A stretch of 64,000 bases of DNA from an uncultured Clostridia bacterium. Its GTDB lineage: Bacteria; Bacillota; Clostridia; UMGS1883. Positions 3,550 to 32,725 of the stretch are shown piece after piece. Below the pieces are notes generated by a model that was given only the letters and a program-made list of their open reading frames with translations, was not told the DNA's origin and made no database searches. Made by a program: the position numbers and the translations under genes. Location: positions 1,125-65,124 of the forward strand of contig CANPZO010000007.1 in the NCBI GenBank assembly GCA_947589005.1, given 5' to 3'. How positions within the stretch are numbered: the first letter of the stretch is position 1; every line of letters starts with the position of its first letter.

Positions 3550-4140
3550 GAGGCGGGGGAGGTGAGCGGAATAATTGGCGGGTATATATACTTAGTCGTA
3601 TATTTGTTGCCGTATATATGTGTAAGCGGGAGCGCAATGCGCTCCCCTACGGGTGGAGCGGGCTCGGCATCGCGTGTTCCGATTTTAAAAATCGGAACGA
3701 CGGCTCGCCTCGCCGCTCCTCCTTTTCCCAGCAAACAACTTTGTTGTTTGCTGGGGCCCCATGGGAAAAGGCGGGGAGGAAACGGAATAATCGGCAAGTG
3801 TATTTATGTAATCGTATATTTGTTGCCGTATATATGTGTAAGCGGGAGTGCAATGCGCTCCCCTACGTCGTCGCGGGCTCGGCATCGCGTGTTCCGATTT
3901 GAAAAATCGGAACGACGGCTCGCTTCGCCGCTCCTCCTTCTCCCCGCAAACAGCTTTGTTGTTTGCGGGGGCCCCGGGGAAAGGCGGGGGGAGGGTGAGA
4001 GGAATTATCGGTAAGTATATTTATGTAATCGTATATTTGTTACCGTATATATGTGTAAGCGGGAGCGCAATGCGCTCCCCTACGGGTGGAGCGGGCGAGG
4101 CGGGGAACCACGGGGAAAGACGGGGGGAAAGGCGGGGAGG
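3550..4140. repeat. ~216-bp imperfect tandem repeat (about 2.5 copies), each carrying a REP-like palindrome GCGGGAG(C/T)GCAATGCGCTCCCCTAC
   Basis: GGAAT anchors at 3568, 3784 and 4001. Palindromes at 3626, 3842 and 4059, with another copy at 9088. Confidence 0.85.
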
Positions 4141-6628: not shown

Positions 6629-6639
6629 TGCTACCGTAA

Positions 6640-6750
6640 AAAATATCTTTTCCACAGACAGCGGGCGACAGTAAGTCCCGCCGAGGAAGATTTTCAAAAG
6701 AAGGATTTTCTTAGGGAGTCTTTGCGTCTGTGGCAAAGACTCCATTTTAA
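6640..6750 (+). promoter_or_regulatory. L10 leader RNA
   Basis: CCACAGACAGCGGG...CCCGCCGAGG core upstream of rplJ. Confidence 0.75.
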
Positions 6751-6772
6751 TTTCATGTGAGGTGAAACGTGT

Positions 6773-7450: not shown

Positions 7451-7819
7451 ATGACAATTCAGGAAATTATCGATGCCATAAAAGAGCTTAAGCTGCTTGA
7501 GGTTGCCGAGCTCGTTAAGGCTATGGAAGAGGAGTTCGGCGTAAGCGCCGCCGCTCCCGTTGCCGTTGCCGGCGCTGTTGCCGGAGGCGCTCCCGCCGAG
7601 GAGGAGAAGACCGAGTTCAATCTGGTTCTGGCTGAGGCCGGCGCCGAGAAGATCAAGGTTATAAAGGTTGTTCGTGAGATAACCGGTCTCGGACTTAAGG
7701 AAGCTAAGGCTGCCGTTGACGGCGCTCCCACCACACTTAAGGAAGCCATCAGCAAGGACGACGCCGAGAAGTACAAGGCCCAGCTTGAAGAGGTTGGCGC
7801 TAAGGTAGAGCTTAAGTAA
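7451..7819 (+). CDS. rplL: 50S ribosomal protein L7/L12
   Basis: [10 protein letters not shown]; [20 protein letters not shown]. Confidence 0.98.
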
Positions 7820-7840
7820 GCTGACTTAAAAATGGAACGC

Positions 7841-7862
7841 AGAGGGGCCTTTCGGCCCCTTT
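7841..7862 (+). terminator. Terminator after rplL
   Basis: AGGGGC-CTTTCG-GCCCCT followed by TT. Confidence 0.7.
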
Positions 7863-7900
7863 AGCATAGGTAAAATTCTTGGGCGGCGTTTTGAAGCGAG

Positions 7901-8911
7901 GTGCGGAAAATGACTTACGAGGAGTTTGTAAAGGAAATAAAGGCGGGGCTTCCGTCGTCATTATATCTGCTGACAGGGCCGGAGGACTTTTTGAAGGAAA
8001 AGTGCATCGAACAGGCCAAAAGCAGGCTGGTGACGCCGGGCTTTGAGGACTTTAACTTTCAGAGCTTCAATCAGGTTCCGGATTTTTCCGCGTGCGCCGA
8101 TTTTGTGAACGGTATGCCGATGATGAGCGAACGCAAGCTGCTGGTGCTCAGAAAGTGCGGGTTTTTTGACGCGAAGCTCAAGGGCAAGGCCGACTGGGAG
8201 GGGTTGTTCTCAAATCTGCCCGAGACGGTCTGCGTCTTGCTTTGGGAGCCGGATCCGGAAAAAAAGAAAGCCTCAACCGGCCTGCGGAAGGTATGCGAAC
8301 AGGCCGGCACCGTGGTGGATTTTCAGTACCAGACAGCGTCAAAGCTGGCGCCGTGGATAGCGAAGGCGGCCTCGGCCGGAGGTAAGCTTATCGACCGCGG
8401 CTGCGCCGAATATCTCATCGCCAGCCTCGGACGCAGCATGAGCGTGCTGAAAACCGAGCTGGAAAAGGTGACGGCCTATGCCGCCGGAGAGCAGATAACC
8501 AGGGCGGACATCGACGCGGTGATAATCCTGCCCACGGAGGACAGGGCCTTCAAGCTTATCGACTCCATTATGGATGGGCGAAGGGACCTTAGCTATATGT
8601 ATCTGGGCGAGCTGCGGCAGAACAGGACGGAACCGGTACAGTTTTTGTCGCTGTTTGCCGGTCAACTGCTGACGATTTATCGGGCCAAGCTGCTGTTGGG
8701 AGAAGGAATACAGAGGAGCGCGGCGGCCAAAAGGCTGGGCGTGGCTCCGTTTGTGGCCGATAAATGCGTGGCTAAGGCCGCCCGCGCCTCGGAGGAGGGT
8801 CTGGAGGGATTGATTTCCCTTTGCAGGGACGCTGACCGGGATATAAAGCAGGGCAAAATAGAGCCTTGGACCGCGCTGGAGCTGATAGTGGCCCGGGCAA
8901 AAGTGATGTAA
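7901..8911 (+). CDS. holA: DNA polymerase III delta subunit
   Basis: LYLLTGPEDFL, PMMSERKLLVL, ELEKV and D.DIKQG motifs. Confidence 0.9.
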   Translation: MRKMTYEEFVKEIKAGLPSSLYLLTGPEDFLKEKCIEQAKSRLVTPGFEDFNFQSFNQVPDFSACADFVNGMPMMSERKLLVLRKCGFFDAKLKGKADWEGLFSNLPETVCVLLWEPDPEKKKASTGLRKVCEQAGTVVDFQYQTASKLAPWIAKAASAGGKLIDRGCAEYLIASLGRSMSVLKTELEKVTAYAAGEQITRADIDAVIILPTEDRAFKLIDSIMDGRRDLSYMYLGELRQNRTEPVQFLSLFAGQLLTIYRAKLLLGEGIQRSAAAKRLGVAPFVADKCVAKAARASEEGLEGLISLCRDADRDIKQGKIEPWTALELIVARAKVM

Positions 8912-9178
8912 ACGCCGAAGCAAAATGCTTCGGCGTTTGAGCTTGTCGAAAAACAAAAATGTAGCCTTGAAACTGTAGGGGCGGTCATTGGCCGTCCGCC
9001 ATCAAACGTTTATGTTGACAATGATAAATGATATTACAATCAAATATATTCACAAAATCGTATATTTGTCACCGTAAATCTGTGTAAGCGGGAGCGCAAT
9101 GCGCTCCCCTACAAAATCCGGCAAAGAAATCGACTTTATCGACAGTCTGAAACGCTGAAGCATTTTGCTTCGGCGTTT
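8910..9178. mobile_element. MITE-like insertion flanked by an inverted duplication of the holA terminator hairpin, containing an inverted REP doublet
   Basis: 8910-8938 AAACGCCGAAGCAAAATGCTTCGGCGTTT; 9150-9178 is its reverse complement with one mismatch. Inner ends TGTCGAAAAA / TTTATCGACA. GTAGGGG at 8975 and CCCCTAC at 9106. Confidence 0.65.
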
Positions 9179-9249
9179 TCTTTTTTTTGCATTTGATTTG
9201 TCATCAGTTTTGGGGGACGAAAAAGGTGTGAAAAAAATTTAAAAATATA

Positions 9250-9278
9250 TTGACATTGGAATTTTGGGGTGGTAATAT
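9250..9278 (+). promoter_or_regulatory. sigmaA promoter heading the phage-like operon
   Basis: TTGACA-N17-TAATAT with extended -10 TG. Confidence 0.8.
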
Positions 9279-9291
9279 ATAGCTACACAGG

Positions 9292-9305
9292 CGAACAAAT
9301 GTTTG
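9292..9305 (+). promoter_or_regulatory. LexA/SOS (Cheo) box
   Basis: CGAACAAATGTTTG fits the Firmicute GAAC-N4-GTTY consensus and lies just downstream of the -10. Confidence 0.7.
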
Positions 9306-9330
9306 CGTTTTGAAGCGGGGAGGTAGACAA

Positions 9331-9624
9331 ATGACAAAAAGAAAAAGGCCGGGGGTGAAGTTCTGCATCGTGTGCGGCAGAAAAATACCCGAGTGCAGCA
9401 ACCGGCACAAAATATGCAGCGAACGCTGCGCGAAAAAGAGAAAAAATCTCGCCAGAAACGGGATGGCGGCGCCTTATGAGTACGCAACGGAGCCTCCTAT
9501 CACATATTACTCTCTGGGCGAAATCCAGAGAAGGGCCAGAGCCATGGGGTTGAGCTACGGCCAGTATATGAGCAGGATATACAACGGAGGAATGAGCTTT
9601 GAAGGGATACAAAAGGCTAATTGA
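9331..9624 (+). CDS. Small Cys-rich zinc-finger protein with GLSYGQY motif, putative regulator
   Basis: CIVC...CSERC, basic N-terminus, ARAMGLSYGQY; GGGAGGT RBS before ATG 9331. Confidence 0.7.
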   Translation: MTKRKRPGVKFCIVCGRKIPECSNRHKICSERCAKKRKNLARNGMAAPYEYATEPPITYYSLGEIQRRARAMGLSYGQYMSRIYNGGMSFEGIQKAN

Positions 9625-11164
9625 CGAATACTTCGAGAGGTGCATGGGAGAGGAGCGAGAGGGAAAAAACGGCGAAAATATAAGAGTGAACTCCAAGCCG
9701 CCCACCCTTACGGGACTGGCGCTGGCGTTAGGCTTCAACAGCAAGGCCGAGCTGATGAAATTCGGCAGGAGCAAAAGAGGAAAGGAGTTAGTCGAGAACG
9801 CCAGACTGAAAATAGAAAATTACAACGAGGAAAAGCTGTTCGAAAAGGACTTTGCCAGAAGCGCCATTTTCAATCTCACCAACGCAAGAGAGGATCAGGC
9901 GGCGGAAGAGGAAAGGGAGACGGGCATGAAAATACCGGCGGAGCTGGTAGGCTCGGCCTTTGTGGATCTTTACAGGGACATCGCCGCGGAAGGGCACGGA
10001 GAGTACGTGCTTAAGGGCGGCCGTGGCAGCACGAAATCTTCTTTTGTGGCGCTGGTCATCATTGAAAGGCTCATGAGACGGGAGGACGAGCACGCCGCCG
10101 CCATGCGTCAGGTGGGGGCCACCCTCCGGGACAGCGTTTACGCGAGGCTGTGCTGGGCCATCAACGTACTGGGGCTGGAAAACGAGTTCGAGTGCAGACT
10201 TATGCCGCCGGAGATAATCAGGAAAAGCACAAAACAGAAAATATATTTCAGGGGCGCGGACGACCCCTCAAAGCTCAAGTCGCTGACGCCGTCCTTCGGA
10301 CACATAGGTATGCTGTGGCTGGAGGAGCTGGACCAGTTCGGCGGAGAGGCCCAGGTCAGGAGCATCGAGCAGAGCCTGCTACGGGGCGGGGAGGGGCTGG
10401 TGTTTAAAACCTTTAATCCTCCGCTTTCGAGAAACAACTGGGCCAACAGGTACGCCGCCATGCCGAAAAAGAACCGCATGGTGCATCACAGCACCTATCT
10501 GGACGTGCCGGCCCAATGGCTGGGAAGCCGCTTCATAGAGGAGGCGGAGTTCCTGAAGGAGACAAATCCGACGGCCTATGCTCACGAGTATCTGGGCGAG
10601 TGCGTGGACTGCGGCGGGCTGGTGTTTGAAAATCTCACCGTCAGGGATATAAGCGATGAGGAGATAAGCGGCTTTGAACGTATTTACAACGGCATAGACT
10701 GGGGCTGGTACCCGGACCCCTTCAGATTTTGCCGCTGCGCCTATATCGCCGGAGAAAGGCGGCTGTTCATATTTGACGAAATAAGCGGCAACAAGCTGTC
10801 GAACGGGGATATCGCGGAAAGGCTAAGGGAAAAGGGCATAGGCGGCGGGGACAGGATAACCGCGGACAGCGCGGGCGAGGGCCCCAAGAGCATCGAGGAC
10901 TTAAAGTCGGCGGGCTTTATGATAAGGGGAGCGGTTAAGGGCCCGGGGAGCGTGGAGTATTCCATGAAGTGGCTTTGCGGGCTGAGAGAGATAGTGGTGG
11001 ACGGACGGCGCTGTCCCAACGCCGCCAGGGAATTTGCGGAGTACGAATTTGAACGGGACAGGGACGGTCAGGTCATGGGCGGTTATCCCGACCGTGACAA
11101 CCACAGCATCGACGCGGTGCGCTACGCCATGGAGGAGGTTTGGCGGAAAAGAGGGATAAAGTAG
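9599..11164 (+). CDS. Terminase: small-subunit-like N-terminal domain fused to a PBSX-family large subunit
   Basis: N-terminal PPTLTGLALALGF (DNA-packaging gp3/TerS-like), Walker A GGRGSTKS, Walker B WLEELDQF, FNPP, GIDWG, nuclease DNHSIDAVRYA. GGAGGA RBS before TTG. Confidence 0.9.
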   Translation: MKGYKRLIDEYFERCMGEEREGKNGENIRVNSKPPTLTGLALALGFNSKAELMKFGRSKRGKELVENARLKIENYNEEKLFEKDFARSAIFNLTNAREDQAAEEERETGMKIPAELVGSAFVDLYRDIAAEGHGEYVLKGGRGSTKSSFVALVIIERLMRREDEHAAAMRQVGATLRDSVYARLCWAINVLGLENEFECRLMPPEIIRKSTKQKIYFRGADDPSKLKSLTPSFGHIGMLWLEELDQFGGEAQVRSIEQSLLRGGEGLVFKTFNPPLSRNNWANRYAAMPKKNRMVHHSTYLDVPAQWLGSRFIEEAEFLKETNPTAYAHEYLGECVDCGGLVFENLTVRDISDEEISGFERIYNGIDWGWYPDPFRFCRCAYIAGERRLFIFDEISGNKLSNGDIAERLREKGIGGGDRITADSAGEGPKSIEDLKSAGFMIRGAVKGPGSVEYSMKWLCGLREIVVDGRRCPNAAREFAEYEFERDRDGQVMGGYPDRDNHSIDAVRYAMEEVWRKRGIK

Positions 11165-11232
11165 GGCGAGGAGTTACGGCCGCAAGGCCGATATGTAAAA
11201 AAAGACGGGAAAAATAAACGAGGAGGGAACTT

Positions 11233-12507
11233 ATGTTTTGGAAAAAACGTGAGGAAAACGTACCCGCGGGAAGGGTGAGCACCGGAGCCATGGACGAGGC
11301 CCGGCGGAGATGGAGGTCAATGTATCTCAGCACGAAGGGGCTCCGTCTGCCGGCGGCGGTGGCCGGAGAACTGGCCCGGCTCACCACTGCGGAAATGAAG
11401 GTGAGCATTGGGGGCAGAGACGGAAAATTCCTGGAAAAAACGCTGAACCCCCTGATGGGCAGGCTGCGGCGGGAGCTGGAATACGGTCTGGCCGAGGGCA
11501 GTCTTGTGTTTAAGCCTTATTACGACGGGCGGGAGCTGAGGATTGACGTTGTTAAGGGAGACTGCTTCCGCCCGACGGCCTGGGACAGCGGCGGCGCCGT
11601 GACGGGGGCGGTGTTCGTACAGGAGATAAAAAAGGAGGACGGCTACTATGTGAGAGAGGAAAGGCACAGTCTGGGAGACGGGGCCTACCGCATAGAAAAC
11701 GCCGCCTTCAAGTGCCGTATCCCCGGAGAGGCGGGCAGGAGCATCCCGCTCCACGAGGTGGAGGAGTGGAAGGACATGGCGGAGAGCCTTGTCATAGAAA
11801 ATGTAAACAGGCCGCTTTTCGGATTTTTCCGCACGCCGTCGGCTAACACGACGGACCCCGGGTCGCCCTTGGGAGTATCGGTTTTTGCCGGAGCGGAGGA
11901 GCTGATGGAGGACGCGGACAGGCTGTACAAAAACCTGCTGTGGGAGTTCGAGAGCGGCAAGCGGCGGCTGTACGTGGACGTTACGGCCTTTGAGCGCGAC
12001 CCGAAGGGACGGCCCAAGCTGCCCGACACGGAGCTGTTCAGGACCATAGACGTTAATGACAGCGGCTTTTTCAGCGAGTGGTCGCCGGAGCTGCGGAACG
12101 GGGCCATTCAGTCGGGACTTAATACGGTGCTCCAGAGGGTGGAGTTCAACTGCGGGCTGGCTTACGGTACGGTGTCTCAGCCCTCCTATGTGGAAAAGAC
12201 GGCGGAGGAGATAAGGTCGTCAAAGCAGCGGAGCTACTGCTTTGTGAAGGACCTTCAGCGGGAGCTGGAAAAGGCCCTCAGAGAGCTTATAGACGCTTTG
12301 AGCGTGTGGGCGGAGCTGTACGGACTGGTGGAAAATGGCGAGTATGAGTGCGGCTTCGAGTTCGACGACAGCATTGTGGCAGACCGCCGAACGGAGTACG
12401 AGGAGAGGGTGCGGCTCACGGAACTGGGCGTGCTCAGACCCTGGGAGCTCCGCGCCTGGTATCTGGGCGAGACCGAGACTATGGCGAGGGAGGCCCTCGG
12501 CGAGTGA
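11233..12507 (+). CDS. Phage portal protein (A118/SPP1-like)
   Basis: Follows terminase; SPLGVSVF, WEFESGK, EFNCGLAYG, KTAEEI and FDDSIVAD motifs. Confidence 0.9.
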   Translation: MFWKKREENVPAGRVSTGAMDEARRRWRSMYLSTKGLRLPAAVAGELARLTTAEMKVSIGGRDGKFLEKTLNPLMGRLRRELEYGLAEGSLVFKPYYDGRELRIDVVKGDCFRPTAWDSGGAVTGAVFVQEIKKEDGYYVREERHSLGDGAYRIENAAFKCRIPGEAGRSIPLHEVEEWKDMAESLVIENVNRPLFGFFRTPSANTTDPGSPLGVSVFAGAEELMEDADRLYKNLLWEFESGKRRLYVDVTAFERDPKGRPKLPDTELFRTIDVNDSGFFSEWSPELRNGAIQSGLNTVLQRVEFNCGLAYGTVSQPSYVEKTAEEIRSSKQRSYCFVKDLQRELEKALRELIDALSVWAELYGLVENGEYECGFEFDDSIVADRRTEYEERVRLTELGVLRPWELRAWYLGETETMAREALGE

Positions 12508-12827
12508 AAAAGATAAGGATATTCAGCTATGACAGGGCGGCGGGGGCATACAGCTTCGCCGACTACAACTGCACGGTCGTTCTTCATGACGGACAGGAGC
12601 CGGAAAGCGGTGGGACTTACCGCAAAAACGGAGGCAGCGTCAGGATAATGACAAGTAAGGACGTTGCCGTGAGGCCGGGAGACTGGCTTTCTCTGGACAC
12701 GGGACGCGACAGGCCGGATAAGGACAGGGACAGGCTGGTCACCGAGGTAAGGGACAACAGAAGGGGCGGACTGCCCCATTGGAGGCTGATATTAGATGGC
12801 AGGGCCGGAGTTAGAGTTAACTCTTAA
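12504..12827 (+). CDS. Putative head-closure/stopper protein
   Basis: GTGA overlap with the portal stop, GAGGGAGG RBS; C-terminal VRDNRRGGLPHWRL. Confidence 0.65.
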   Translation: MKKIRIFSYDRAAGAYSFADYNCTVVLHDGQEPESGGTYRKNGGSVRIMTSKDVAVRPGDWLSLDTGRDRPDKDRDRLVTEVRDNRRGGLPHWRLILDGRAGVRVNS

Positions 12828-13158
12828 TCCCACGGAGAACATACTGCGGAAGAGGGGACTGGACAAGGGCGGCGCGGTGCAAAGGGCGGTGGATAAAGCG
12901 GTCATCGACCTATGCGAGCCATATGTCCCCTTTGACACAGGAGCTTTGAAGGAAAGCCCAAAAACCTGTTCCTCGCCGGGAAAGGTGGTCTACGGTATGC
13001 CCTATGCCCGAAAGCAATACTACGAAAACAAGGGCGACGGCGGCCTGAGAGGAGCGAGGTGGTTCGAGCGCATGAAGGCGGACCATATGGGCGACATAGT
13101 CGAAATAGCCGAGGAAACGATGAAAAAAAGCGGCGGGCAAAAGGGCGCGGCGAACTGA
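12796..13158 (+). CDS. Minor capsid/neck protein (HK97 gp10-like)
   Basis: PYVPFDTGAL, PYARKQYY, RGARWFERMKA. Confidence 0.8.
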   Translation: MAGPELELTLNPTENILRKRGLDKGGAVQRAVDKAVIDLCEPYVPFDTGALKESPKTCSSPGKVVYGMPYARKQYYENKGDGGLRGARWFERMKADHMGDIVEIAEETMKKSGGQKGAAN

Positions 13159-13173
13159 AAAAGGGAGGAAAAT

Positions 13174-13494
13174 ATGAAATTTACGTTTGAAAATTTTTCG
13201 AGAGAGGTGGACAACATGGACGTGGCCGTGGTAAAGCGTTATGAGAGCTGCCTTGAGGACTTTTATAAAAGGGTGGCGGGCATAGATATGAAAAAGAAGG
13301 CCAGCGGCATATACGGCGACATATGCGCTGCCGGCGAGGCCATGATGGACGGCTTTTTCGGCGAGGGCGCGGCACGGGAAATGTTCGGCGAGAGCCAGAG
13401 CGTCAGAAAGGTCATGGAGGCGGTCTGCGGGCTCAACGGCTATATGAACGACGTGAGCGGGGTCGTTGACGGCATGAGGAGATTGGGAGCGTGA
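13174..13494 (+). CDS. Putative tail assembly chaperone
   Basis: FFGEGAAREMFG motif; directly upstream of the Gp15-like gene. Confidence 0.6.
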   Translation: MKFTFENFSREVDNMDVAVVKRYESCLEDFYKRVAGIDMKKKASGIYGDICAAGEAMMDGFFGEGAAREMFGESQSVRKVMEAVCGLNGYMNDVSGVVDGMRRLGA

Positions 13495-14033
13495 GCATCC
13501 TGACCCGCGGACTGCCGGAGTTTGTGGTCTGCCGGGGAGAGAGATATGAGATAGAAACAGACTTCCGGGTCTGGATAGATTTTTACGAGCGGGCCCGGGA
13601 GCGGGATATACCGGGGATGCTTAAGGTGTACCGCCGTCTGCCGCCCTCGCTGAGCGAGGCGCTGGAGCTGGCGGCGGAGTTCGGCCGGGGAGGAGCCCTG
13701 CCCTACGGAAGCGGACATAGGGGCGGCCGCGCCCTGCTGGATTACGAGGCCGACGCGGGACTCATATACGCGGCCTTTATGGGTGAGTACGGCATCGACC
13801 TCTGTGAGGCAAGGCTCCACTGGTACAAGTTCTGCGCTCTGCTGGCAGGTCTTGGGGAGGGTCGGGCCCTTTCCAGGGTGATGGCCATCAGGGGCATGGA
13901 CCCGTCGGCCCAGACCGACAGCGGACGCAGAAGCGAGCTGCGGAGGCTCCAGAGGATATACGCCTGTCCGGACAGGCGCAGCCTTGAGGAGCGGGACGCG
14001 GACGCGGCGGCGGTCCTCGGTAAGTTTTATTGA
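13491..14033 (+). CDS. Bacteriophage Gp15-family protein (tail chaperone)
   Basis: IETDFRVWI; DYEADAGLIYAAF..EYGIDL...LHWYKF.ALL. Confidence 0.85.
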   Translation: MSILTRGLPEFVVCRGERYEIETDFRVWIDFYERARERDIPGMLKVYRRLPPSLSEALELAAEFGRGGALPYGSGHRGGRALLDYEADAGLIYAAFMGEYGIDLCEARLHWYKFCALLAGLGEGRALSRVMAIRGMDPSAQTDSGRRSELRRLQRIYACPDRRSLEERDADAAAVLGKFY

Positions 14034-14082
14034 CGTATGGCAGGGAGGGTGGGATAAAAATATTTTGGAAGGAGGGAAAATA

Positions 14083-14472
14083 ATGGACAGAAAATTTTTG
14101 GAGGAAAAGGGCCTCGACGAGGAGGCCATCGACGAGATAATCGCCGAGCATGAGAAGCTAATGGACGAGCTTCGGGTTGAAATGGAGGCCAAAATCTCCG
14201 AAAAGGAGGAAGAGATGGAGGAGCTCCGCAGGGACTTCGACATCGACAGAGAGCTGACCGGACTGGGAGCCAGAAACCATAAGGCGGTAAAGGCCCTGCT
14301 CGACAAGGAGGCTCTCAGAACGGGCGACCCCGAGGAGCTCGTAAAACAGCTGGAAAAGATACGCCGTGAAAACGGATATCTTTTTGCCGGCTCGAATACC
14401 CCCGTGGCCACCGGCCCTACCGCGCCCAGAACCGAAAAGAGCTTCGGGTTTAAGTTTACGGGGGTAAGATGA
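14083..14472 (+). CDS. Capsid scaffolding protein (GP20-like)
   Basis: MDRKFLEEKGL, coiled coil, GARNHKAVKALLD, GYLF; GGAGGG RBS. Confidence 0.85.
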   Translation: MDRKFLEEKGLDEEAIDEIIAEHEKLMDELRVEMEAKISEKEEEMEELRRDFDIDRELTGLGARNHKAVKALLDKEALRTGDPEELVKQLEKIRRENGYLFAGSNTPVATGPTAPRTEKSFGFKFTGVR

Positions 14473-14552
14473 GGGACGGCCGACGTCCCCAAATCGGCGG
14501 CGGGCCTTAAGCGACCCACGGCCGGCCATGAAAAACGAAAGGAGTAAAAATT

Positions 14553-15437
14553 ATGGCAGCACTTAACTATGCGACCGAATACGCGGGCAGTCTTGCCCAG
14601 GCGTATCCCTATGTGCTCAACTTCGGCGCTCTCTACAATACGGAGAACGATCAGCGTTACCGCTGGGTAAACGCTAAAACCATCGAGATACCCAGCATTA
14701 CCACCACCGGCAGGGTGGACGGCGACAGGGACACCATCGCGACGGCAAAGCGCAACTATGACAACGCCTGGGAAATGAAGACCCTTACTCACCACCGCAA
14801 GTGGAGCACTCTCGTACATCCCATGGACATAGACGAGACAAATATGACCGCGTCTATCAGCAACATAACTCAGGTGTACAACGAGGAGCACAAGTTCCCC
14901 GAAATGGACGCCTATACCGTATCGGAGATATACAAGCTCTGGACAACGGACGGCAATACCGCCGACACCACCGTGCTCAAGGCGACAAACGTGCTTTCGG
15001 TATTTGACAAAATGATGGAGGCCATGGACGAGGCCAGAGTCCCCGCCAAGGGAAGGATACTTTACGTGACCCCCGCGGTAAAGACCCTGATCAAAAACGC
15101 GAACCAGCTTTCTCACGTCATTAACAACGGCGACGCCAAGGTGGACCGCAGCGTGGCGGACCTGGACAGCGTGGAGATAGTGGCCGTGCCCAAGAACCTG
15201 ATGAAAACCTCCTACGACTTCACGGAGGGTTGGAAGGTCGGCGGAGATGCCAAGCAGATAAATATGCTGCTCATCCATCCCAGCGCGGTCATAACTCCCG
15301 AAAAGTACACCTTTGCCCGTCTGGACGAGCCCAGCGCCGGAAGCGAGGGCAAGTACATATACTTTGAGGAAAGCTATGACGGGGTGTTCATCCTCAACAA
15401 GAGAATGGGCGGAGTGGCCTTTAACACGGAGGCTTGA
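14553..15437 (+). CDS. Major capsid protein
   Basis: ALNYATEY, IEIPSI, VHPMDIDETN, FPEMDAY, MDEARVP..GRILYVTP; follows the scaffold gene. Confidence 0.9.
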   Translation: MAALNYATEYAGSLAQAYPYVLNFGALYNTENDQRYRWVNAKTIEIPSITTTGRVDGDRDTIATAKRNYDNAWEMKTLTHHRKWSTLVHPMDIDETNMTASISNITQVYNEEHKFPEMDAYTVSEIYKLWTTDGNTADTTVLKATNVLSVFDKMMEAMDEARVPAKGRILYVTPAVKTLIKNANQLSHVINNGDAKVDRSVADLDSVEIVAVPKNLMKTSYDFTEGWKVGGDAKQINMLLIHPSAVITPEKYTFARLDEPSAGSEGKYIYFEESYDGVFILNKRMGGVAFNTEA

Positions 15438-15440
15438 GCC

Positions 15441-15797
15441 ATGAGCTACGAGGAGTATCTGGAAAGATACACCGGAGCGGAGCCTGTGCCGGAGCGGGAA
15501 TTCGGCTTTTACTGCGAAAAGGCGGGCAGGCTCATAGACAGCTTCACCTTCGGGCGCGGGTCGGAGTCGGAGCTGGAGGAGGTGGCTTACGCCCAAGCGG
15601 AGCTGATACAGTATCTCTATGAAAACAGCGGAAGGAGAGGCGTGGTCAGCGAGAGCAACGACGGCCTGAGCGTAACCTATGCCGACGGCGGCTCCGAGGT
15701 CTCGGACGCCAGAGACATTGTGAAGCAGTGGCTCGGCGGTACCGGCCTTATGTACGCCGGAGTGGAGATGGGAGAGAGCTGCGATGGCGGTTATTGA
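15441..15797 (+). CDS. Head-tail connector/adaptor
   Basis: IDSFTFGR, SESNDGLSVTY, L..TGLMYAG. Confidence 0.8.
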   Translation: MSYEEYLERYTGAEPVPEREFGFYCEKAGRLIDSFTFGRGSESELEEVAYAQAELIQYLYENSGRRGVVSESNDGLSVTYADGGSEVSDARDIVKQWLGGTGLMYAGVEMGESCDGGY

Positions 15798-16200
15798 CAG
15801 TGTGAGGCGGTTTTTCGCGGAGTGCCCGCTGCTTGAGGACGGCTGTATAAACGTGAATTATCTGGGAGCAAAAAAAGCGGATTACAGCATAGAGAGCGTT
15901 CCGTCGGAGCCTGTGGTGCGCCGGTACGTGGACGGGGGCGAGCTGAGACAGTACGTCTTTGTTTTCGCCTCCCGTGAATACTACGACGAGGACATGGAGG
16001 ACAATTCCCACACCGCCGGTTTTTATGAGGAGCTGGCGGCATGGATAGAGGACAGCGGCAAAAATGGGAGGCTGCCTGTGCTGACCGGCGGAAAGGCCCT
16101 TGCCATGGAGGTCATGTCCGGCGGCTATGTCCTGTCGGAAAAGGCCGGAACCGCCAGATACCAGATGCAGCTTAGGCTGATATACAAAAAGGAGGAGTAA
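15784..16200 (+). CDS. Tail terminator / minor capsid-type protein
   Basis: YSIE..P....V..YVDG...RQY.F, ARYQMQLRLIY; lies before the tail tube gene. Confidence 0.7.
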   Translation: MAVIDSVRRFFAECPLLEDGCINVNYLGAKKADYSIESVPSEPVVRRYVDGGELRQYVFVFASREYYDEDMEDNSHTAGFYEELAAWIEDSGKNGRLPVLTGGKALAMEVMSGGYVLSEKAGTARYQMQLRLIYKKEE

Positions 16201-16202
16201 AT

Positions 16203-16664
16203 ATGGCACTGGTAAAACGCTGTGAGAAGCTGGCGTTCATGAATGTGGACGGAACTTATCACAGAATGACTAATTTTACGGAGATAGCCGTGGAGAAAAA
16301 CCCCAGGGAATACTCCCGGCAGTACGTGGACGAGGAGTTTGAACGCTCCAGCATTGTGGGCTACAGCACGGCGGTAAGCTACAGCTTCGACTACGACAAC
16401 GAGAACAAGGTCCACAACCTCATAAAGAAGATAACGGACAAGGAACTGCTTGCGGACGAGGCCGTCGTGGAGATAGTTATGGTGGATATCGATAATACCG
16501 AGGGCAAAAATCAGGCGGTGAGCCGCCGTTGGAGCGTTATACCCGAGACCGAGGGCAACAGTACCGACGCCTACACCTACAGCGGAAGCTTCCGCGCCAA
16601 CGGCCCTGCCGCGGATGTCAAGGCGGTATCCGCCGACGGCTGGAAAACCATAACGGTTGAGTAA
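16203..16664 (+). CDS. Major tail (tube) protein
   Basis: NPREYSRQYVDE, YTYSGSF.ANG; position before the tape measure gene. Confidence 0.75.
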   Translation: MALVKRCEKLAFMNVDGTYHRMTNFTEIAVEKNPREYSRQYVDEEFERSSIVGYSTAVSYSFDYDNENKVHNLIKKITDKELLADEAVVEIVMVDIDNTEGKNQAVSRRWSVIPETEGNSTDAYTYSGSFRANGPAADVKAVSADGWKTITVE

Positions 16665-16693
16665 GCGGGACGCCCGTAAGCGGAGGTGAGGCT

Positions 16694-18400
16694 ATGGCGG
16701 GAGACGGAAGTATCGTCATAAATACCGAGCTCGACACCGGAGGTCTGGAAAAAGGGCTGGACAGGCTCAAGGAGCTGGTCAAAAGCCGGTCCGCCGACGC
16801 CGGTGACAGTCTCGGCGGAATATTCGACGGCCTTGAGTCGGCGCTTAAGGGTATCTCGGTGACCGAGGGGATAGGAAAGCTCATCGACAGCGCGAAGGAC
16901 GCGCTGGTGGGCGGCGCGGCGGAGCTCAGCTCCGCCGCCGGCCTGACCGCGAGGGACGCGGCAGAGGGCCTCGGCGCGGGTGATGATAATTTCAGAAAAG
17001 GCGGGAGCGGCCTTGCGGCGGCCGCCGCCGAGGGTCTTTCATCGGGGGAAAACGCTCTTGACGCCGCCGGAAGCTCGGCGGCGGAGAGCGCGGCCTCGGC
17101 CATGAATGTGCCCGGAAATTTCCTTTCCGTGGGGCTGAACCTCATAAACGCCCTGAGAAACGGTTTGGCCTCCGGCGCCGCCGCCCTCTATGCCAAGGCG
17201 TCGGAAATCGCCGGAAGGGTCACGGCTCTGGTAAAGGGCGTGTTCAAGATACATTCTCCCTCGGCGGTGTTCAGAGATGACATCGGTAAGATGCTGATGC
17301 TGGGCCTGCGGGACGGTATCTTGAACAATTCCGAGGCGGTGCTGGCGGCAACGGAGGCTCTGGCGGAGGATATGCTTGAGTCGGAAAAGAGGTATCTGGC
17401 GGAGAAGAAACGGATAGACGAGCTCAACGACCAGGAGGACGAGGCCCGCCGGGTCCGCGAGTACGAAGAAAGGCTCAGCCTGGCCAAGACTCGGGAGGAA
17501 AAGGACGAGCTTATAGAGGAAGAAAGGCTCCGGCTCAGAAAGCGGGCCGACGCCAAGTATCTCGAGCAGCTCAAGTCCGCCGCTGAAAAGGAAAGGGAAA
17601 TAATTGACGGGCTCAAGGAGGACATTACGGCGGCTTACAAGGACATAGCCGAGTATATAGAGAACAGTCTGGAGCCCATAGAGGAGGACCGCAGAGACCT
17701 TGAGGACAAGCTGAAAAAGTACGCCGGAAGCAGCGGCGGTCTGTACACAACGGTGATAGAGCGCAAGGACCGTGACGACCTGGTCTATTACGGTTTGGCG
17801 GACCAGCAGAGGGCCATAGACATTCTGAACAAATACTCCTCGGCGCTCGGCGCCGCCTCGGAACGGATAAAGTCGGCCTTCGGCCCGGAAACGGCAAGGA
17901 GCTTTATGTCCGCCCTGACGGAGATGGACGTGGAGGAGGGCGCGATTTTTGCCGAAACCTTGGCGGCGGCGTCGGACGCGGACTTTGAAAAGTACATTAA
18001 AGACTGGGGAAAGAAGAACACCCTTGCGGAGGAGATATCCCGTCAGCTTTACGGCGAAGCCTTCACCGACGCGGTGGACGACTGCACCGAGTATATGCGC
18101 AGTGAGCTGGAAAAATTGGGGCTTGAGGTGCCGGAGGGCTTTTTCGCCAGCGGCAGCCTCAGCGCAAAGGAGTTCGGCAGAGGCTTTTCCGAGGGGATAA
18201 ATCAGGTCCTTGAGGAGGCGGGAGAGCTGATAAGGAGCTTCGGCGGCTTTTCGACAGCGGCGGCGGCCGGCGGGACGCCGGTGGTGAACAACAACTATTA
18301 CAGCACCTATTCCGTAAACGGAACAAGGAGCACCGCCGCGGAAAGCATCTTTGCCATGGAAGCCGCCGCCGTAATGAACAGATACAGGGGGCTGAACTGA
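16694..18400 (+). CDS. Short tape measure protein (568 aa)
   Basis: DGSIVINTELDT.G N-terminus, Ala/Gly-rich helical region, IHSPS.VF motif. Confidence 0.85.
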   Translation: MAGDGSIVINTELDTGGLEKGLDRLKELVKSRSADAGDSLGGIFDGLESALKGISVTEGIGKLIDSAKDALVGGAAELSSAAGLTARDAAEGLGAGDDNFRKGGSGLAAAAAEGLSSGENALDAAGSSAAESAASAMNVPGNFLSVGLNLINALRNGLASGAAALYAKASEIAGRVTALVKGVFKIHSPSAVFRDDIGKMLMLGLRDGILNNSEAVLAATEALAEDMLESEKRYLAEKKRIDELNDQEDEARRVREYEERLSLAKTREEKDELIEEERLRLRKRADAKYLEQLKSAAEKEREIIDGLKEDITAAYKDIAEYIENSLEPIEEDRRDLEDKLKKYAGSSGGLYTTVIERKDRDDLVYYGLADQQRAIDILNKYSSALGAASERIKSAFGPETARSFMSALTEMDVEEGAIFAETLAAASDADFEKYIKDWGKKNTLAEEISRQLYGEAFTDAVDDCTEYMRSELEKLGLEVPEGFFASGSLSAKEFGRGFSEGINQVLEEAGELIRSFGGFSTAAAAGGTPVVNNNYYSTYSVNGTRSTAAESIFAMEAAAVMNRYRGLN

Positions 18401-19251
18401 TGGAGATAATTTTTAGAAACGCTCTGGGTGCCATAGAAATGGACGGCGGCTCCGGAACGGCGCCCTTTAAAATACTTGGCGCGGAGGGGCTGGGTTACCT
18501 GACACAAAGCGTCAAGACGACGGCCTATCCCTTCATGGCCGGACAGAGGACCCTTTCGCGCAGCCCGGGGGCGAGGCTCGTCACTCTGTCCGCCGAGGCC
18601 GCCGAGGGCGGCGCGAACTACGAAGGCACCGTGGCGGCCATCGCCCACGAAAGCGGACGGCTGGAAATAATACACGGTGAAAAAAGGGTGTACGCCGACT
18701 GCTATGTAAGCGCCCTGAACGTCACCCGGGCCAAGGGCGGAGAGTACGAAAAGTATGTGTTCCAGTTCACTTGCGACTATCCGTATTTCCGTGACATGAA
18801 CGCCGGCGCGGTGAGCCTGTTCCGGAGAAATAAGCTGGTAAAGGGGAGCTTTGTGCTGCCGAAGGTGTTTTCCGAAAGGGTCACCGGCGGAACGGTGACG
18901 GTCAAAGGCGACAGGGAGGTCTATCCTACGGTTTATGTCCGGGGACTGTCTTACGAAACGGAGTTCCCTCTTGAGCTGGAGAACACCGCCACAGGCGCAA
19001 GGCTTAAGCTGACGCTGCCGGCGGGGGAATACGAGCTGATAACCTTTGACCTGCGCAACGGAAGGATAAGCTGCGGCGAAAAGGATTTGAGCAAATATCT
19101 GGACGAGAACAGCTTCATGAGTGATTTTTACCTCTTGAAGGGCGAAAATCGCATCGAGGTCAGAGCCATGGACCTTTCGGTGAACACCTCGGCCTCGGTG
19201 AGCTGTGAAAGCGAGTATTACAGCGCGTGGGAGGACAGAGATGTGCGGTGA
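18400..19251 (+). CDS. Distal tail (Dit)-like protein
   Basis: Follows the tape measure gene; FTCDYPYF and L.KGEN.I motifs. Confidence 0.75.
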   Translation: MEIIFRNALGAIEMDGGSGTAPFKILGAEGLGYLTQSVKTTAYPFMAGQRTLSRSPGARLVTLSAEAAEGGANYEGTVAAIAHESGRLEIIHGEKRVYADCYVSALNVTRAKGGEYEKYVFQFTCDYPYFRDMNAGAVSLFRRNKLVKGSFVLPKVFSERVTGGTVTVKGDREVYPTVYVRGLSYETEFPLELENTATGARLKLTLPAGEYELITFDLRNGRISCGEKDLSKYLDENSFMSDFYLLKGENRIEVRAMDLSVNTSASVSCESEYYSAWEDRDVR

Positions 19252-20185
19252 ACTGATTTTTTACGACTATGAGTTCAATCCTTTGGGAAGGGTGGCGCGG
19301 GCGGCGGACATCTATCACAAGGAGATATACAACGGCATCGGCACATTTGAGGCGGAAATCGACCGTTCGGAGCCAATGGCGGCGGAGCTTTTGAGAAGAG
19401 ATTACACCGTTGTAATATGGGACGGCCTACAGGCGGTGATAACCTCCGTCCAGGCGGAGGAGGGCGAGGAGACGGTGAGGATATACGGACGCACTCCCAA
19501 CTGGATCCTCGGCAAACGGGCCTGTCCCAACTTCGGCCAACGTAACGGAACGCCTCACGCGCTGGCCCACGCTTTGGTGAGCGAGGTCTGGGGCGACAGC
19601 ATCGCCGACGGTCCGGGCGGAGATATCGGGGGCGAGGAGACCACCTTCTGGCGGAACGTGTACAATCCCTTAAGCGAGGTGGTAGCGGACTGCCTTGACC
19701 GTGCCGGAGCGGGACACCGGGTGGTGTTCGACACAAATGATAAGCAGTGGAGGTTCGAGACCTACGAGGGGAGGCTCCTGCCGCTGATGTTTTCGTCGGA
19801 CAGGCGCAACGCTGCCGATATGAGCTGCAGCCACAGCGTGCTGGACCATTTCAACGGCGGCTTTTATACCACCGACGAGGAGAAGGGCACGTGGACGGAG
19901 ATACCCTCGGACAAGGAGGGCATATACCGCTGGACCGCCCGCCTGACAAGCACCGGCGAAAGTTCGGCCAAAAACGAGCTTGAGAAGAAGAAAATAGAAA
20001 ATAAAATCGACTTCAGCACTCTTGATATTCTGCGGGGCAGGGATTACGAGCTGGGTGACCGCGTCCGCGCGGCCATGGACCTTGGCGGAAAGCGGATAGT
20101 GAACGAAATGAGGATAACGGCGGTGGAAAGGTGGGCGTCGTACAATGACAGCGGCGAAAGGCCGCTGTTGGAGGGAATGGAGTGA
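19241..20185 (+). CDS. Siphovirus Gp37-like baseplate hub/tail protein
   Basis: YNGIGTFE and RDYELGDRV motifs; position after Dit. Confidence 0.75.
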   Translation: MCGELIFYDYEFNPLGRVARAADIYHKEIYNGIGTFEAEIDRSEPMAAELLRRDYTVVIWDGLQAVITSVQAEEGEETVRIYGRTPNWILGKRACPNFGQRNGTPHALAHALVSEVWGDSIADGPGGDIGGEETTFWRNVYNPLSEVVADCLDRAGAGHRVVFDTNDKQWRFETYEGRLLPLMFSSDRRNAADMSCSHSVLDHFNGGFYTTDEEKGTWTEIPSDKEGIYRWTARLTSTGESSAKNELEKKKIENKIDFSTLDILRGRDYELGDRVRAAMDLGGKRIVNEMRITAVERWASYNDSGERPLLEGME

Positions 20186-20320
20186 GAAACGCGCGGCGCA
20201 AGCGATATGCGCCGCGGCTCTTTAAGGGCTGTTCTCCACTCTATGACGCGGGGGTACAAGTCCCGCCGGAGCACCGAAGGGCGGGACTTAGGCCCCTATT
20301 GAATTTGCAGAGGTGAAAAA

Positions 20321-21190
20321 GTGAAATATTACTTTGGCGATAATCGGGAATACGGCGCCGCCGACATAAAAAAAGCCTTTGGCGTGTTCGCGGCGCAGGG
20401 AGGCATAGACTTGGGACTAAGCGACGGAAAGCAGCACAGTCCCTCGGATTTGAACCGCATCATAGCCGCGGCGGTGAGCAAGGGCGTCGTCACCGAAAGC
20501 AACAGCTGTCTCAGGCTTGACGAAAAGGACGGCGGCTACTATATCCTGCCGGGCAAGGGAGTGTTTTCCGACGGCGGCATGGCGGAGGTAGAGGAGGAGA
20601 CGAGGGTCGATATAAGCGGAGGGCATTATCTGTACATAGCCTACAGTGAAATGCTGGACGAGGTGTATTTCCTTGTGACGTCGGACCCCCGCACCGACAG
20701 CGTCAGCGAGCTCCTGATACCCATAGCCTACGTGGACGAAAGCGGAAAGCCTCGGGATATGCGGGAATTTGCCAGAGGCAAGCTGCCGGCCCTGCCCTCG
20801 GCCACCTGGAACGTGATGCGCGAGGTGGAGCTGGTGGTGGACGCATCGACCGTAACTCACGGGGAGATAAATTCCGACCGCTATATCGAGGCGAGGCATC
20901 CCATCGACGGCGACATAAACTTTATGATGGTGGAAAGCGAAATATTCATGTCCACCATGAACATAGGCCCTGTCGGCGCCGCCTATCACACGGTGGCGGG
21001 CGGCGGCACCGGATTGCACATCCACACCCACGACTATTTTGGCGTGCATTACAGCGGCAGCTTTTACCGCGCCACCTATCTGGGCGGAGGGAGCGGCTAT
21101 ATAGACCTGCGGTATTATTTCCCCAAAAATCTGGCCGGTGGAAGGTTTTCGTATAAGGCGACGGTGGGGATAAAAAATAACCCTGTGTGA
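20321..21190 (+). CDS. Baseplate/receptor-binding-like structural protein
   Basis: N-terminus (DNREYGAAD...V..GV...PGKG) resembles clostridial phage upper-baseplate proteins; last gene of the module. Confidence 0.55.
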   Translation: MKYYFGDNREYGAADIKKAFGVFAAQGGIDLGLSDGKQHSPSDLNRIIAAAVSKGVVTESNSCLRLDEKDGGYYILPGKGVFSDGGMAEVEEETRVDISGGHYLYIAYSEMLDEVYFLVTSDPRTDSVSELLIPIAYVDESGKPRDMREFARGKLPALPSATWNVMREVELVVDASTVTHGEINSDRYIEARHPIDGDINFMMVESEIFMSTMNIGPVGAAYHTVAGGGTGLHIHTHDYFGVHYSGSFYRATYLGGGSGYIDLRYYFPKNLAGGRFSYKATVGIKNNPV

Positions 21191-21473
21191 GAGACCGGAA
21201 TATTGATCGTCCCATGTCCGCCCGCGCCGCCGGCGATTACGGCGGCGAGCTATATTAAGGGGCAGGAACCGCCAAAAAATCACGGAGGCACTGGGGCTGT
21301 CAAAAAAATCGCGTAGAAAAAAATCGGAACAGGCGTTGCATCGCTTGTTTCGATTTTTTTTACTTTTTCGGCGGCTTGAGGGCAAGCCGCCCTACGGAGC
21401 ACTAACGCAACAAAGTAGAGGTTTCGTTTTTCGCAGCCCCCTTTTTTGTTTTGAAAAATTTTCTGTAAAAATA

Positions 21474-21502
21474 TTGATTTTTGCCCCGGCACGTGGTAAA
21501 AT
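21474..21502 (+). promoter_or_regulatory. sigmaA promoter for rodA
   Basis: TTGATT-N17-TAAAAT with extended TG. Confidence 0.6.
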
Positions 21503-21539
21503 AGAGGGCGAAACAAAAAACGGAAAGGGAGGCGGCGGC

Positions 21540-22721
21540 ATGGAAGAGACGGAAAACACGGAGAACACGGCCGTGGAGCCGGAGCGGGCGGTAAAGCCCA
21601 AAAAGGAAAAGAAAGAAAAAAAGGGCCTGTTTTCCGACGCGGTGGACCACTCGCTGTTGATTTATGTCATACTCGCCTCGCTTTGCGGCATTGTGGCGGT
21701 GAACAGCGCCTCGGCCGGCATAGAGGGGCATTACCGCTATGTGATAGTGCAGTCGGCGGCTTTTCTGCTGGGAATGGCGGCTATGACGGCGCTGACCTTT
21801 TTTAATTACAAATATCTGGACAAGCTCAGATTTGTATTTCTGGGCGCGGCGGTGGCGCTGCTGGCGGTGGTGCTTGTGATAGGCAAAATTCGGGGCGGAA
21901 CTCAGGGCTGGCTTGCCGTGGGCCCGCTGAACCTTCAGCCCGCCGAAATCGCCAAGCTCTGCTTTATAATCACCATGTCCTGCCATCTGGCGCGGGTGCA
22001 TGAAAGCGTAAATAAGCCTAAGACCCTGATTTTCCTGCTGCTGCATTTGGGAATTTACGTGGGGCTGATACTGCTTCAGCCCGACTTCGGCACGGCGATG
22101 GTTTTTGTGGTCATCTTCTGCGCGGAGCTGTTCTTCGCGGGGATAAGCCTTAAGTATGTGTTCGGCACTTTGGGGGCGGCGGCGCTGGCCTCGCCGATAA
22201 TATGGTTCCTGCTAAAGCCCCATCAGAGGGGCCGCCTGCTCAGCTTTATCAACCCCGAAAGCGACCCCACCGGCACCGGCTATCATGTGCTTCAGTCCAA
22301 GCTGGCTATGGGCAGCGGCCAAATCTGGGGCAGGGGCTATCTTAAGGGGCCTCAGACCCAGTACGGTTACCTGCCGGAAAGACAGACGGACTTTATTTTC
22401 TCCTCCATAGGCGAGGAGTTCGGTTTTGTGGGCTGCGTCATAATAGCGGCGCTGCTTTTCCTTATAATATACCGCTGCTTCAAGGACGCGGTGGACAGCC
22501 GCCACGAGCCTATGGGTATGTTTATCTGCGTGGGCGTGGGGGCGATGATGTTTTTCCACACCTTTGAAAATATCGGAATGTGCCTGGGACTTATGCCCAT
22601 AACCGGCATACCTCTGCCCTTTGTGAGCTACGGCGGCAGCAGTATGCTGACCTGCTGCGCCGCCATCGGCCTTGTGCAGAGCGTCATCACGAGGCGGCGG
22701 CGGACAAAATTTGATATATAA
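21540..22721 (+). CDS. rodA: SEDS-family peptidoglycan polymerase RodA
   Basis: QPAEIAK, LQPDFGT, GYHVLQS..A.GSG, TDFIFS.IGEEFG, PITGIPLPFVSYGGSS. Confidence 0.88.
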   Translation: MEETENTENTAVEPERAVKPKKEKKEKKGLFSDAVDHSLLIYVILASLCGIVAVNSASAGIEGHYRYVIVQSAAFLLGMAAMTALTFFNYKYLDKLRFVFLGAAVALLAVVLVIGKIRGGTQGWLAVGPLNLQPAEIAKLCFIITMSCHLARVHESVNKPKTLIFLLLHLGIYVGLILLQPDFGTAMVFVVIFCAELFFAGISLKYVFGTLGAAALASPIIWFLLKPHQRGRLLSFINPESDPTGTGYHVLQSKLAMGSGQIWGRGYLKGPQTQYGYLPERQTDFIFSSIGEEFGFVGCVIIAALLFLIIYRCFKDAVDSRHEPMGMFICVGVGAMMFFHTFENIGMCLGLMPITGIPLPFVSYGGSSMLTCCAAIGLVQSVITRRRRTKFDI

Positions 22722-30350: not shown

Positions 30351-30378
30351 CGCGGCGTCATGAAAGGGGGCGGCGGCC

Positions 30379-30561: not shown

Positions 30562-30616
30562 CGTATATATATAACAAAAAATGTTCACCTCTCATATTAT
30601 AATGAGAGGTGATTTT

Positions 30617-31246: not shown

Positions 31247-31264
31247 CAGGGGACGCCGCTCCCG

Positions 31265-32620: not shown

Positions 32621-32648
32621 ATTTTTTCCTCCAAATTAAAAAATGTTA

Positions 32649-32677: not shown

Positions 32678-32725
32678 ATAAGTGTAAGGTACAAAATAGA
32701 AATATAAATTATTGGAGGTGTCATC

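Follow-up and report, generated by a model that had tools for sequence, protein, structure and literature searches.

Within a stretch of 64,000 nucleotides (nt) from an uncultured Clostridia bacterium (contig CANPZO010000007.1 of assembly GCA_947589005.1), hereafter the window, we analysed a cassette of 16 tightly packed + strand genes (9331-21190, 11.9 kb) that encodes components of a tailed, phage-like particle, together with the promoter and the LexA-type palindrome preceding it. Coordinates are positions in the window unless a contig is named. The cassette lies among host genes: nusG, rplK, rplA, rplJ, rplL and holA are found to its left, and ftsW/spoVE, a transporter gene, a gene for an S24 protein, yabQ, divIC, a gene for an S1 protein and gerA to its right. 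The source genome (G000; assembly size 2,107,127 bases) was compared with those of 10 other species of the same genus (G001-G010).

The sole visible control region of the operon is located at 9241-9305 on the + strand. An A/T-rich tract (9241-9249), which may function as an UP element, adjoins the -35 hexamer TTGACA (9250-9255), a match to the sigma-A consensus. A 17-nt spacer (9256-9272) separates this hexamer from the -10 hexamer of an extended -10 element, TGgTAATAT (9270-9278), with TG at 9270-9271 and TAATAT at 9273-9278. From the geometry of the promoter, transcription is predicted to start at the A at 9285, 7 nt past the -10 element. A gap of 13 nt (9279-9291) separates the -10 element from a single predicted LexA (Cheo-type) operator, CGAACAAATGTTTG (9292-9305), which would occupy about +8 to +21 of the transcript and ends 25 nt before the first ATG (9331). 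A ribosome-binding site, GGGGAGG (9317-9323), follows, with the ATG 7 nt further on. The promoter (TTGACA-N17-TAATAT with an extended TG, 9250-9278) and the box 13 nt later had been noted at the same positions in a preliminary description of this DNA, and both were confirmed in the sequence. Employing a consensus scan for promoter-like sites and terminator hairpins over 7800-22000, with shuffled sequences as the control, we found this promoter to be the top one of 10 promoter-like sites (10/12 hexamer matches plus the TG); shuffled sequence yielded 5.5 +/- 2.4 such sites. Because the promoter is near the sigma-A consensus, it should need no activator.

CGAACAAATGTTTG fits the palindrome GAAC-N4-GTTC/T given for LexA of B. 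subtilis and Clostridium (PMC4234289), and the motif GAAC-N4-GTTY that the preliminary description had attributed to Firmicute LexA agrees with that source. G000 has one lexA gene and one recA gene. The recA operator, AGAACATTTGTTCG, is positioned five bases past TATAAT, and the lexA operator of the same genome, TGAACATTTGTTTG, is present in the DNA upstream of that gene. The uvrB box, CGAACTTTTGTTCG, is placed between the -35 and -10 hexamers; a radical-SAM/helix-hairpin-helix (HhH) repair gene has the box CGAACATTTGTTTG, and a yneA-like LysM gene has three boxes. Compared with these sites, the cassette box is the same operator as those of recA and lexA, and also as those of the uvrB, radical-SAM/HhH and yneA-like LysM genes. 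Its placement 13 nt past a 10/12-consensus promoter, with the start position predicted, resembles the arrangement at recA. The exact pattern CGAAC-N4-GTTYG occurs 5 times in the genome. One occurrence is in GC-rich, apparently coding DNA; the four promoter-proximal ones belong to the cassette, uvrB, the radical-SAM/HhH gene and the early operon of a prophage-like element on contig C4.

To rank the site within the genome, we used a 16-nt-wide operator matrix trained on the boxes of recA, lexA, uvrB and the radical-SAM gene and on two yneA boxes, with the cassette site excluded. With 20.78 bits, the cassette site ranked third genome-wide and outscored four of the six training sites, and the ranking shows a gap in score after the top eight sites (at least 18.76 bits). 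Sites of at least 20.7 bits are expected 0.06 times per genome from base composition and were absent from 5 Markov-simulated genomes; three were observed, namely those at recA, the cassette and the prophage-like element.

The palindrome could in principle serve another repressor, for which the candidate is an S24 LexA-like protein encoded 2.5 kb downstream of the cassette (23720-24334). The usual Ser and Lys motifs are present in its S24 autopeptidase domain, its N-terminal part is unassigned, and in Caulobacter a LexA-like protein, RogA, represses activators of a gene transfer agent (GTA; PMC9632790). We regard this explanation as extremely improbable. The operator is indistinguishable from the recA, lexA and uvrB boxes, so LexA should bind it regardless; moreover, the S24 paralogue is off the cassette contig in 5 species, is present in G007, which lacks the cassette, and has no close match in G009, which carries it. 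Given its lack of linkage in 5 species and an occurrence that does not follow that of the cassette, the S24 gene was rejected as a dedicated regulator. The protein itself is fast-evolving (33-58% identity, 9 of the 11 genus genomes), its gene is linked to the cassette in G000 and G001 only, and the true lexA is located on contig C15 (approximately 52404-53066).

We then aligned the promoter regions (132 columns) of the seven species that have the upstream DNA assembled; in the two remaining cassette-bearing genomes contig ends intervene. Promoter and box are at the same place in all seven, always with one box only, and in six of them the box is the perfect palindrome CGAAC-N4-GTTCG. All 40 invariant columns fall within 9241-9305; there are none in the 36 columns upstream or the 31 columns downstream. 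They cover the A-tract (AAAAA, 9241-9245), ATTGAC at the -35 hexamer, the spacer stretch TTTnGGGTG (9263-9271; columns 9263-9265 and 9267-9271, including the TG of the extended -10 element), parts of the -10 hexamer, the A at 9285 and the box. Conservation is confined in this way despite saturated synonymous sites between most of the species. The promoter pattern is present exactly once in each of these 7 genomes, and a fuzzy search of G000 allowing up to 7 substitutions returned the known site alone and no second operon with the same promoter. The conservation of the spacer stretch in the seven species exceeds what a sigma-A spacer requires.

Two sets of related phage loci served as controls. 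The first comprised 54 loci of more distant relatives of the terminase large subunit (TerL; 25 genomic and 29 viral-contig loci, 425,103 bases). Only one of them, viral contig L111, has matches of at least 17 bits, and these lie about 3-4 kb upstream of its TerL gene; matches of 15-17 bits were found in L092 and L103. The second comprised 80 metagenome loci with relatives of the major head protein at 58-69% identity (852,015 bases), the closest relatives in that scan being at most 69% identical; these loci have a standard gene order and contain no match of at least 17 bits. In none of the 134 loci is a box positioned directly ahead of the terminase gene, and the exact promoter-operator pattern had no match in the metagenome contigs.

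The genes of the cassette were annotated with PHROGs, Pfam and NCBIfam. Gene 1 (9331-9624) encodes a basic zinc-ribbon protein of 97 amino acids with weak matches (phrog_1271, E-value 4.7e-4; DUF2116, below the cut-off; viral hypothetical-protein clusters). Its ratio of nonsynonymous to synonymous divergence (dN/dS) is 0.04-0.14, and it is found upstream of none of the 54 more distant terminase-relative loci. The next gene (9599-11164) encodes a terminase in which an N-terminal domain resembling the small subunit (TerS; residues ~6-93) is fused to a PBSX-family large subunit. The protein matches Terminase_3 (131.9 bits), GP3_package (29.6 bits versus a cut-off of 29.4) and phrog_606, and it reaches 123.7 bits against the PBSX-family model TIGR01547, whose cut-off is 105; its N-terminal ~90 residues match the small-subunit families GP3_package and phrog_606. 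The fusion is kept as a single open frame in 8 species, with a length of 506-591 amino acids in seven relatives within the genus. In more distant relatives the two halves align as separate pieces (L106, L107, L110 and G010:C4), or the N-terminal part is missing.

Downstream of the terminase gene are the genes for the portal protein (11233-12507; phrog_533, E-value 9e-102), a 107-amino-acid protein (12504-12827) that is conserved in 7 other genomes as judged by tblastn and resembles DUF6751 weakly, below the cut-off, and a minor capsid or connector protein (12796-13158; phrog_556; Minor_capsid_2, 38.2 bits). A DUF6673 gene (13174-13494) and a Phage_Gp15 gene (13491-14033) follow; they probably encode tail assembly chaperones and have been relocated, and this role is proposed because in the related cluster L045 the pair is located between the tail tube and tape measure genes. 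The head genes encode a scaffolding protein (13984-14472; phrog_194, E-value 1e-15) and the major head protein (14553-15437; phrog_422, E-value 1e-102). Then come a head-tail adaptor (15441-15797; phrog_541), a tail completion protein (15784-16200; phrog_3266), a 153-amino-acid protein that, from gene order, is the probable major tail (tube) protein (16203-16664; phrog_3099), a tape measure protein of 568 amino acids (16694-18400; several tape-measure PHROGs), the distal tail protein Dit (18400-19251) and a Sipho_Gp37-like minor tail protein (19205-20185). The last gene (20321-21190) encodes a 289-amino-acid protein with no family match and weak Atlas leads (0.87) to receptor-binding and baseplate clusters; it is possibly a receptor-binding or baseplate protein.

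In all copies of the cassette the order at 12796-14033 is rearranged, so that the connector gene and the two probable chaperone genes precede the scaffold gene. Relatives (L045 and many metagenome loci) have the connector and chaperone genes after the head genes, beside those for the tube and the tape measure. Together, the promoter, the box, gene 1, the terminase fusion and the moved chaperone genes mark a genus-level clade. The GC content of the cassette is 57.6%, versus ~55% for the contigs. Integrase, repressor, replication and lysis families were not found among the 16 cassette genes in PHROGs, Pfam or NCBIfam. As genes for replication, integration and lysis are missing from the cassette and it brings no packaging partner, its particles would package host DNA and need lysis functions from outside; a particle unable to carry or replicate its own genes would be GTA-like or PBSX-like.

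Between these two kinds of particle, a PBSX-like role remains to be weighed: under the same regulation, the particles, released on SOS like a defective phage, would kill or compete with related strains, and packaged DNA would be a by-product. The terminase match to TIGR01547 (123.7 bits versus the cut-off of 105) is consistent with this role, nothing in the sequence demonstrates DNA delivery, and for gut GTA-like particles the possibilities of delivering DNA and of acting like PBSX are both left open in PMC12946183. However, the tail is of the siphovirus type (Dit and tape measure) and no sheath, regulator or lysis family is among the cassette matches. Furthermore, killing requires no terminase and portal under strong purifying selection, and both genes are under such selection here (dN/dS 0.07-0.17). 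We consider a killing role rather unlikely.

The cassette is present in 9 of the 11 genus genomes; among the 10 other species, 8 have the major head protein at 83-92% identity. In G002, G005, G008, G009 and G010 the full set of 15 query genes was recovered in colinear order. The copy in G003 is colinear up to the contig end, that in G001 is split over two contigs and that in G004 is on a partial contig. A search with the major head protein (E-value at most 1e-60) detected the cassette in none of the 53 genomes from six other genera of the family. In every species the flanking genes are host genes; the right flank (ftsW, transporter and S24 genes) is common to G000 and G001, and the left flank is common to G009 and G010. 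Synteny is poor throughout the genus: the DNA after holA differs in G009 and G003, and holA is not beside rplL in G002, G005 and G008. With the DNA after holA differing in those genomes and synteny being poor, no empty site that would define the ends of the insertion was obtained, and the cassette ends showed no pair of repeats.

Selection was estimated as Nei-Gojobori dN/dS. Values of 0.04-0.29 were obtained for 15 genes in the pairs G000-G001 and G009-G010 and for 12 genes in the pair G000-G003; the flanking ftsW and transporter genes, for comparison, gave 0.11 and 0.07. Synonymous divergence (dS) is ~0.1-0.8 for G009-G010 and saturated (about 1 or more) in the other pairs. We also compared a tree of RpoB with one of nine concatenated cassette proteins for seven taxa, leaving out G003 (no RpoB match) and G004 (partial cassette). 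The two trees are concordant at every supported split: both separate {G002, G005, G008} from the rest and group G009 with G010, and the cassette tree also pairs G000 with G001. Within the genus, the cassette is inherited vertically and under selection. The preliminary description had taken SOS control of the particle genes as a sign of domestication; the lack of lysogeny, replication and lysis genes, the host flanks, the presence in 9 of 11 species, the purifying selection and the congruence with RpoB all support domestication.

These data also bear on whether the cassette is a decaying prophage remnant, with the box and the promoter as leftovers of an ancestral phage that used LexA and with no present role. 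Phages that directly use host LexA exist, for example GIL01 (PMC6182141; PMC4551915), the identical 14-mer box is found at the early operon of an integrase-bearing element in G000, and strong boxes precede genes on viral contig L111. Decay, however, is at odds with genes that are all intact in at least 6 species at a dN/dS of 0.04-0.29, and with non-coding conservation that is confined to the promoter and operator despite a dS of about 1 or more. The occurrence in 9 of 11 species with an RpoB-congruent tree and the absence of a box directly ahead of the terminase gene in all 134 related phage loci also speak against a remnant, which we judge to be very improbable.

The integrase-bearing element just mentioned occupies approximately 84000-102956 of G000 contig C4 (L077). 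A copy of CGAACAAATGTTTG at C4:97619 is positioned there behind TTGACT-N17-TATAAT, and the early operon contains two unknown genes and genes for a phosphohydrolase-like protein, Erf, ParB-type nucleases, an exonuclease and a DnaB-type helicase. This element is a second phage-derived unit in G000 and, as in GIL01, it is apparently controlled by host LexA. Besides that of the cassette, the genome has two terminase genes, an indication of further phage-like elements.

Such elements raise the possibility that the cassette is a structural-only helper or satellite partner, providing capsids and tails for a C4-type element or being moved or lysed out by a resident prophage. The C4 element has integrase and replication genes behind CGAACAAATGTTTG and shows no structural genes in the 19 kb examined, the prophages implied by the two other terminase genes could provide lysis, and the cassette flanks differ between distant species. 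On the other hand, the Erf gene of C4 is found in 1 of the 11 genus genomes versus 9 of 11 for the cassette, the cassette tree follows the host tree, and the cassette has no integrase and no repeat pair seen at its ends. A partnership of this kind seems improbable to us, and the C4 element as an obligatory partner was rejected because of the single occurrence of Erf in the genus.

A second, more distant relative of the cassette is present beside it in G009 (C1, ~429700-438600) and G010 (C4, ~28500-37200). Its major head protein is 70% (G009) and 64% (G010) identical, and the G010 copy has separate TerS and TerL genes. In G010 one match to the GC-spacer motif was found ~6 kb downstream of the terminase genes (35 kb), and in G009 none (22 kb). 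These relatives are probably ordinary prophages of the lineage ancestral to the cassette.

The borders of the operon are marked by two intrinsic terminators on the + strand. Upstream, at 9149-9190, a 14-pair stem (hairpin 9149-9179) is followed by CTTTTTTTTG with a T-run (fold z-score -4.87); it would end an upstream ~210-bp repeat and shield the cassette promoter from read-through from holA. Downstream, a strong terminator (21316-21361) with a 20-pair stem and a T-run closes the operon ahead of ftsW/spoVE. The spacer between holA and the promoter (8938-9152) is one copy of the ~210-bp structured repeat, bracketed by near-identical terminator hairpins at 8913-8940 and 9153-9179. Partial copies occur at 3583-4083, and the genome has more than 15 copies with 88-96% identity, spread over many contigs. 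As 8938-9152 is one copy of a dispersed repeat, it was rejected as a regulatory RNA of the cassette. Rfam detected only a T-box leader (40701-40940, - strand) and a ribosomal L10 leader (6634-6758, + strand) within the window, both ordinary.

Based on the operator, its conservation and the gene content, we propose that the cassette is likely a LexA-repressed, SOS-induced, domesticated operon of 16 genes for a siphovirus-type particle that is GTA-like or PBSX-like. The near-consensus sigma-A promoter (TTGACA, 17 nt, TGnTAATAT and the A-tract) would fire strongly without a phage activator. Bound to the palindrome (about +8 to +21), a single LexA dimer would hold the promoter closed by occluding RNA polymerase. 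In the SOS response, activated RecA stimulates the self-cleavage of LexA; upon DNA damage, the cassette promoter would be released by these steps and the entire operon transcribed. The cell, probably one of a subpopulation, would then build DNA-packaging tailed particles. As with a GTA or PBSX, these particles would be filled with host DNA by a headful mechanism, and lysis functions would come from elsewhere.

Several observations weigh against this proposal. The bare motif class is not enriched: at up to one mismatch, 4 matches lie in the window versus 8.67 expected, and two of the 4 are this site read on both strands. In G000 the box has the weaker half-site GTTT versus GTTC in six relatives. 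The conserved spacer TTTnGGGTG may reflect a second binding factor or a preference at the -16 region. No box is present in the 83 nt upstream of the first gene in G001, where the contig ends; this stretch is too short to judge by, because elsewhere the box can be as far as ~110 nt from the start codon. Neither the G001 nor the G004 assembly yielded the promoter pattern. Two genomes, G006 (86% complete) and G007 (91% complete), gave no match to the major head protein. The immediate flanks differ among more distant species, and movement of the cassette is possible. Purifying selection by itself is also compatible with an active phage. Finally, the cassette has no holin or endolysin that would account for release. 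Around the 8 candidate cell-wall hydrolase genes of the Amidase_2, Amidase_3 and GH25 families, no matrix match above 11.6 bits was present within 4 kb, and holins were not searched for; no LexA-controlled lysis locus was found in the genome.

On present evidence the operon appears to be an independently domesticated, siphovirus-type and genus-restricted set of particle genes whose LexA wiring is as simple as it could be. A further step, which we put forward tentatively and hold to be possible, is that this genus of gut Clostridia derived a GTA from a siphovirus by a domestication of its own, with host LexA as the single on-switch. If so, DNA-damaging stress, including SOS-inducing antibiotics, would directly turn part of the population into donors that package and export chromosomal DNA. 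The wiring would be the simplest known for any GTA, and gut Firmicutes would have a second GTA lineage, unrelated to that of Faecalibacterium prausnitzii (FpGTA). The cassette is a compact candidate gene cluster whose one-step switch, a consensus promoter and a single predicted LexA operator, is open to testing. If this switch works as proposed, DNA damage would be directly coupled to the export of host DNA across a whole genus of gut anaerobes, the promoter-operator could provide a search handle for further domesticated particle operons, and the cassette would be a clean case of a host replacing the phage regulatory cascade on domesticating structural genes.

Full-text searches of the literature returned, among the best-ranked matches, no description of a Firmicute GTA-like structural operon with a LexA box. 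The closest published cases are the P3 promoter of GIL01 and FpGTA. GIL01 is a temperate tectivirus of B. thuringiensis in which host LexA binds directly at the virion-maturation promoter P3, with DNA damage as the trigger; P3 has tandem boxes and depends on the co-repressor gp7 and the obligatory activator gp6 (PMC6182141). The preliminary description stated that phage late genes are normally driven by phage activators rather than directly by LexA; direct control has a published precedent at P3. The likeness lies in LexA acting directly at a virion-gene promoter of a Firmicute with DNA damage as the trigger, which for the cassette is predicted from sequence. GIL01, however, is an autonomously replicating phage with tandem boxes, gp7 and gp6, whereas the cassette is chromosomal and non-replicating, with one box and no recognisable regulator gene.

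GTA-type packaging is prevalent in gut Ruminococcaceae and Oscillospiraceae; its triggers in these taxa are reported as unknown, and several producers have no identified gene cluster (PMC12946183). FpGTA is podovirus-like, with ten open reading frames in operon I (10.5 kb) and baseplate, fibre and lysis genes in operon II (PMC12946183). The words LexA and promoter do not occur in the main text of that paper, and the switch is not described there (PMC12946183). Like FpGTA, the cassette is a particle operon without replication or integration genes that is near-ubiquitous in one genus of gut Clostridia, and in both a TerS-like function comes without an obvious DNA-binding domain. The two were compared by architecture, and they differ in that the cassette has 16 genes, is of the siphovirus type (tape measure and Dit) and has no second locus that we found. 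No Faecalibacterium-labelled locus was among the 31 TerL-related genome loci.

The defective prophage PBSX of Bacillus subtilis forms contractile tails and encodes a repressor (Xre), a late sigma-like factor and lysis functions. No counterpart of any of these is present in the cassette, for which direct control by LexA at the structural promoter is predicted. PBSX is an SOS-inducible, non-propagating particle of a Gram-positive host that packages host DNA; the particle of the cassette would share these features, and its terminase fits the PBSX-family model. PBSX has been named GTA-like (PMC12946183).

Among alphaproteobacterial GTAs, that of R. capsulatus (RcGTA) requires LexA for its production, with LexA acting indirectly and positively via CckA (PMC9638019); in Caulobacter (CcGTA), the LexA-like protein RogA, which lacks the catalytic residues, represses the activators GafYZ (PMC9632790). 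The cassette resembles these systems as a vertically inherited head-tail cluster that would be controlled by the host and tied to the DNA-damage network. In the cassette, by contrast, LexA would repress the structural operon itself, with no layer of activators in between.

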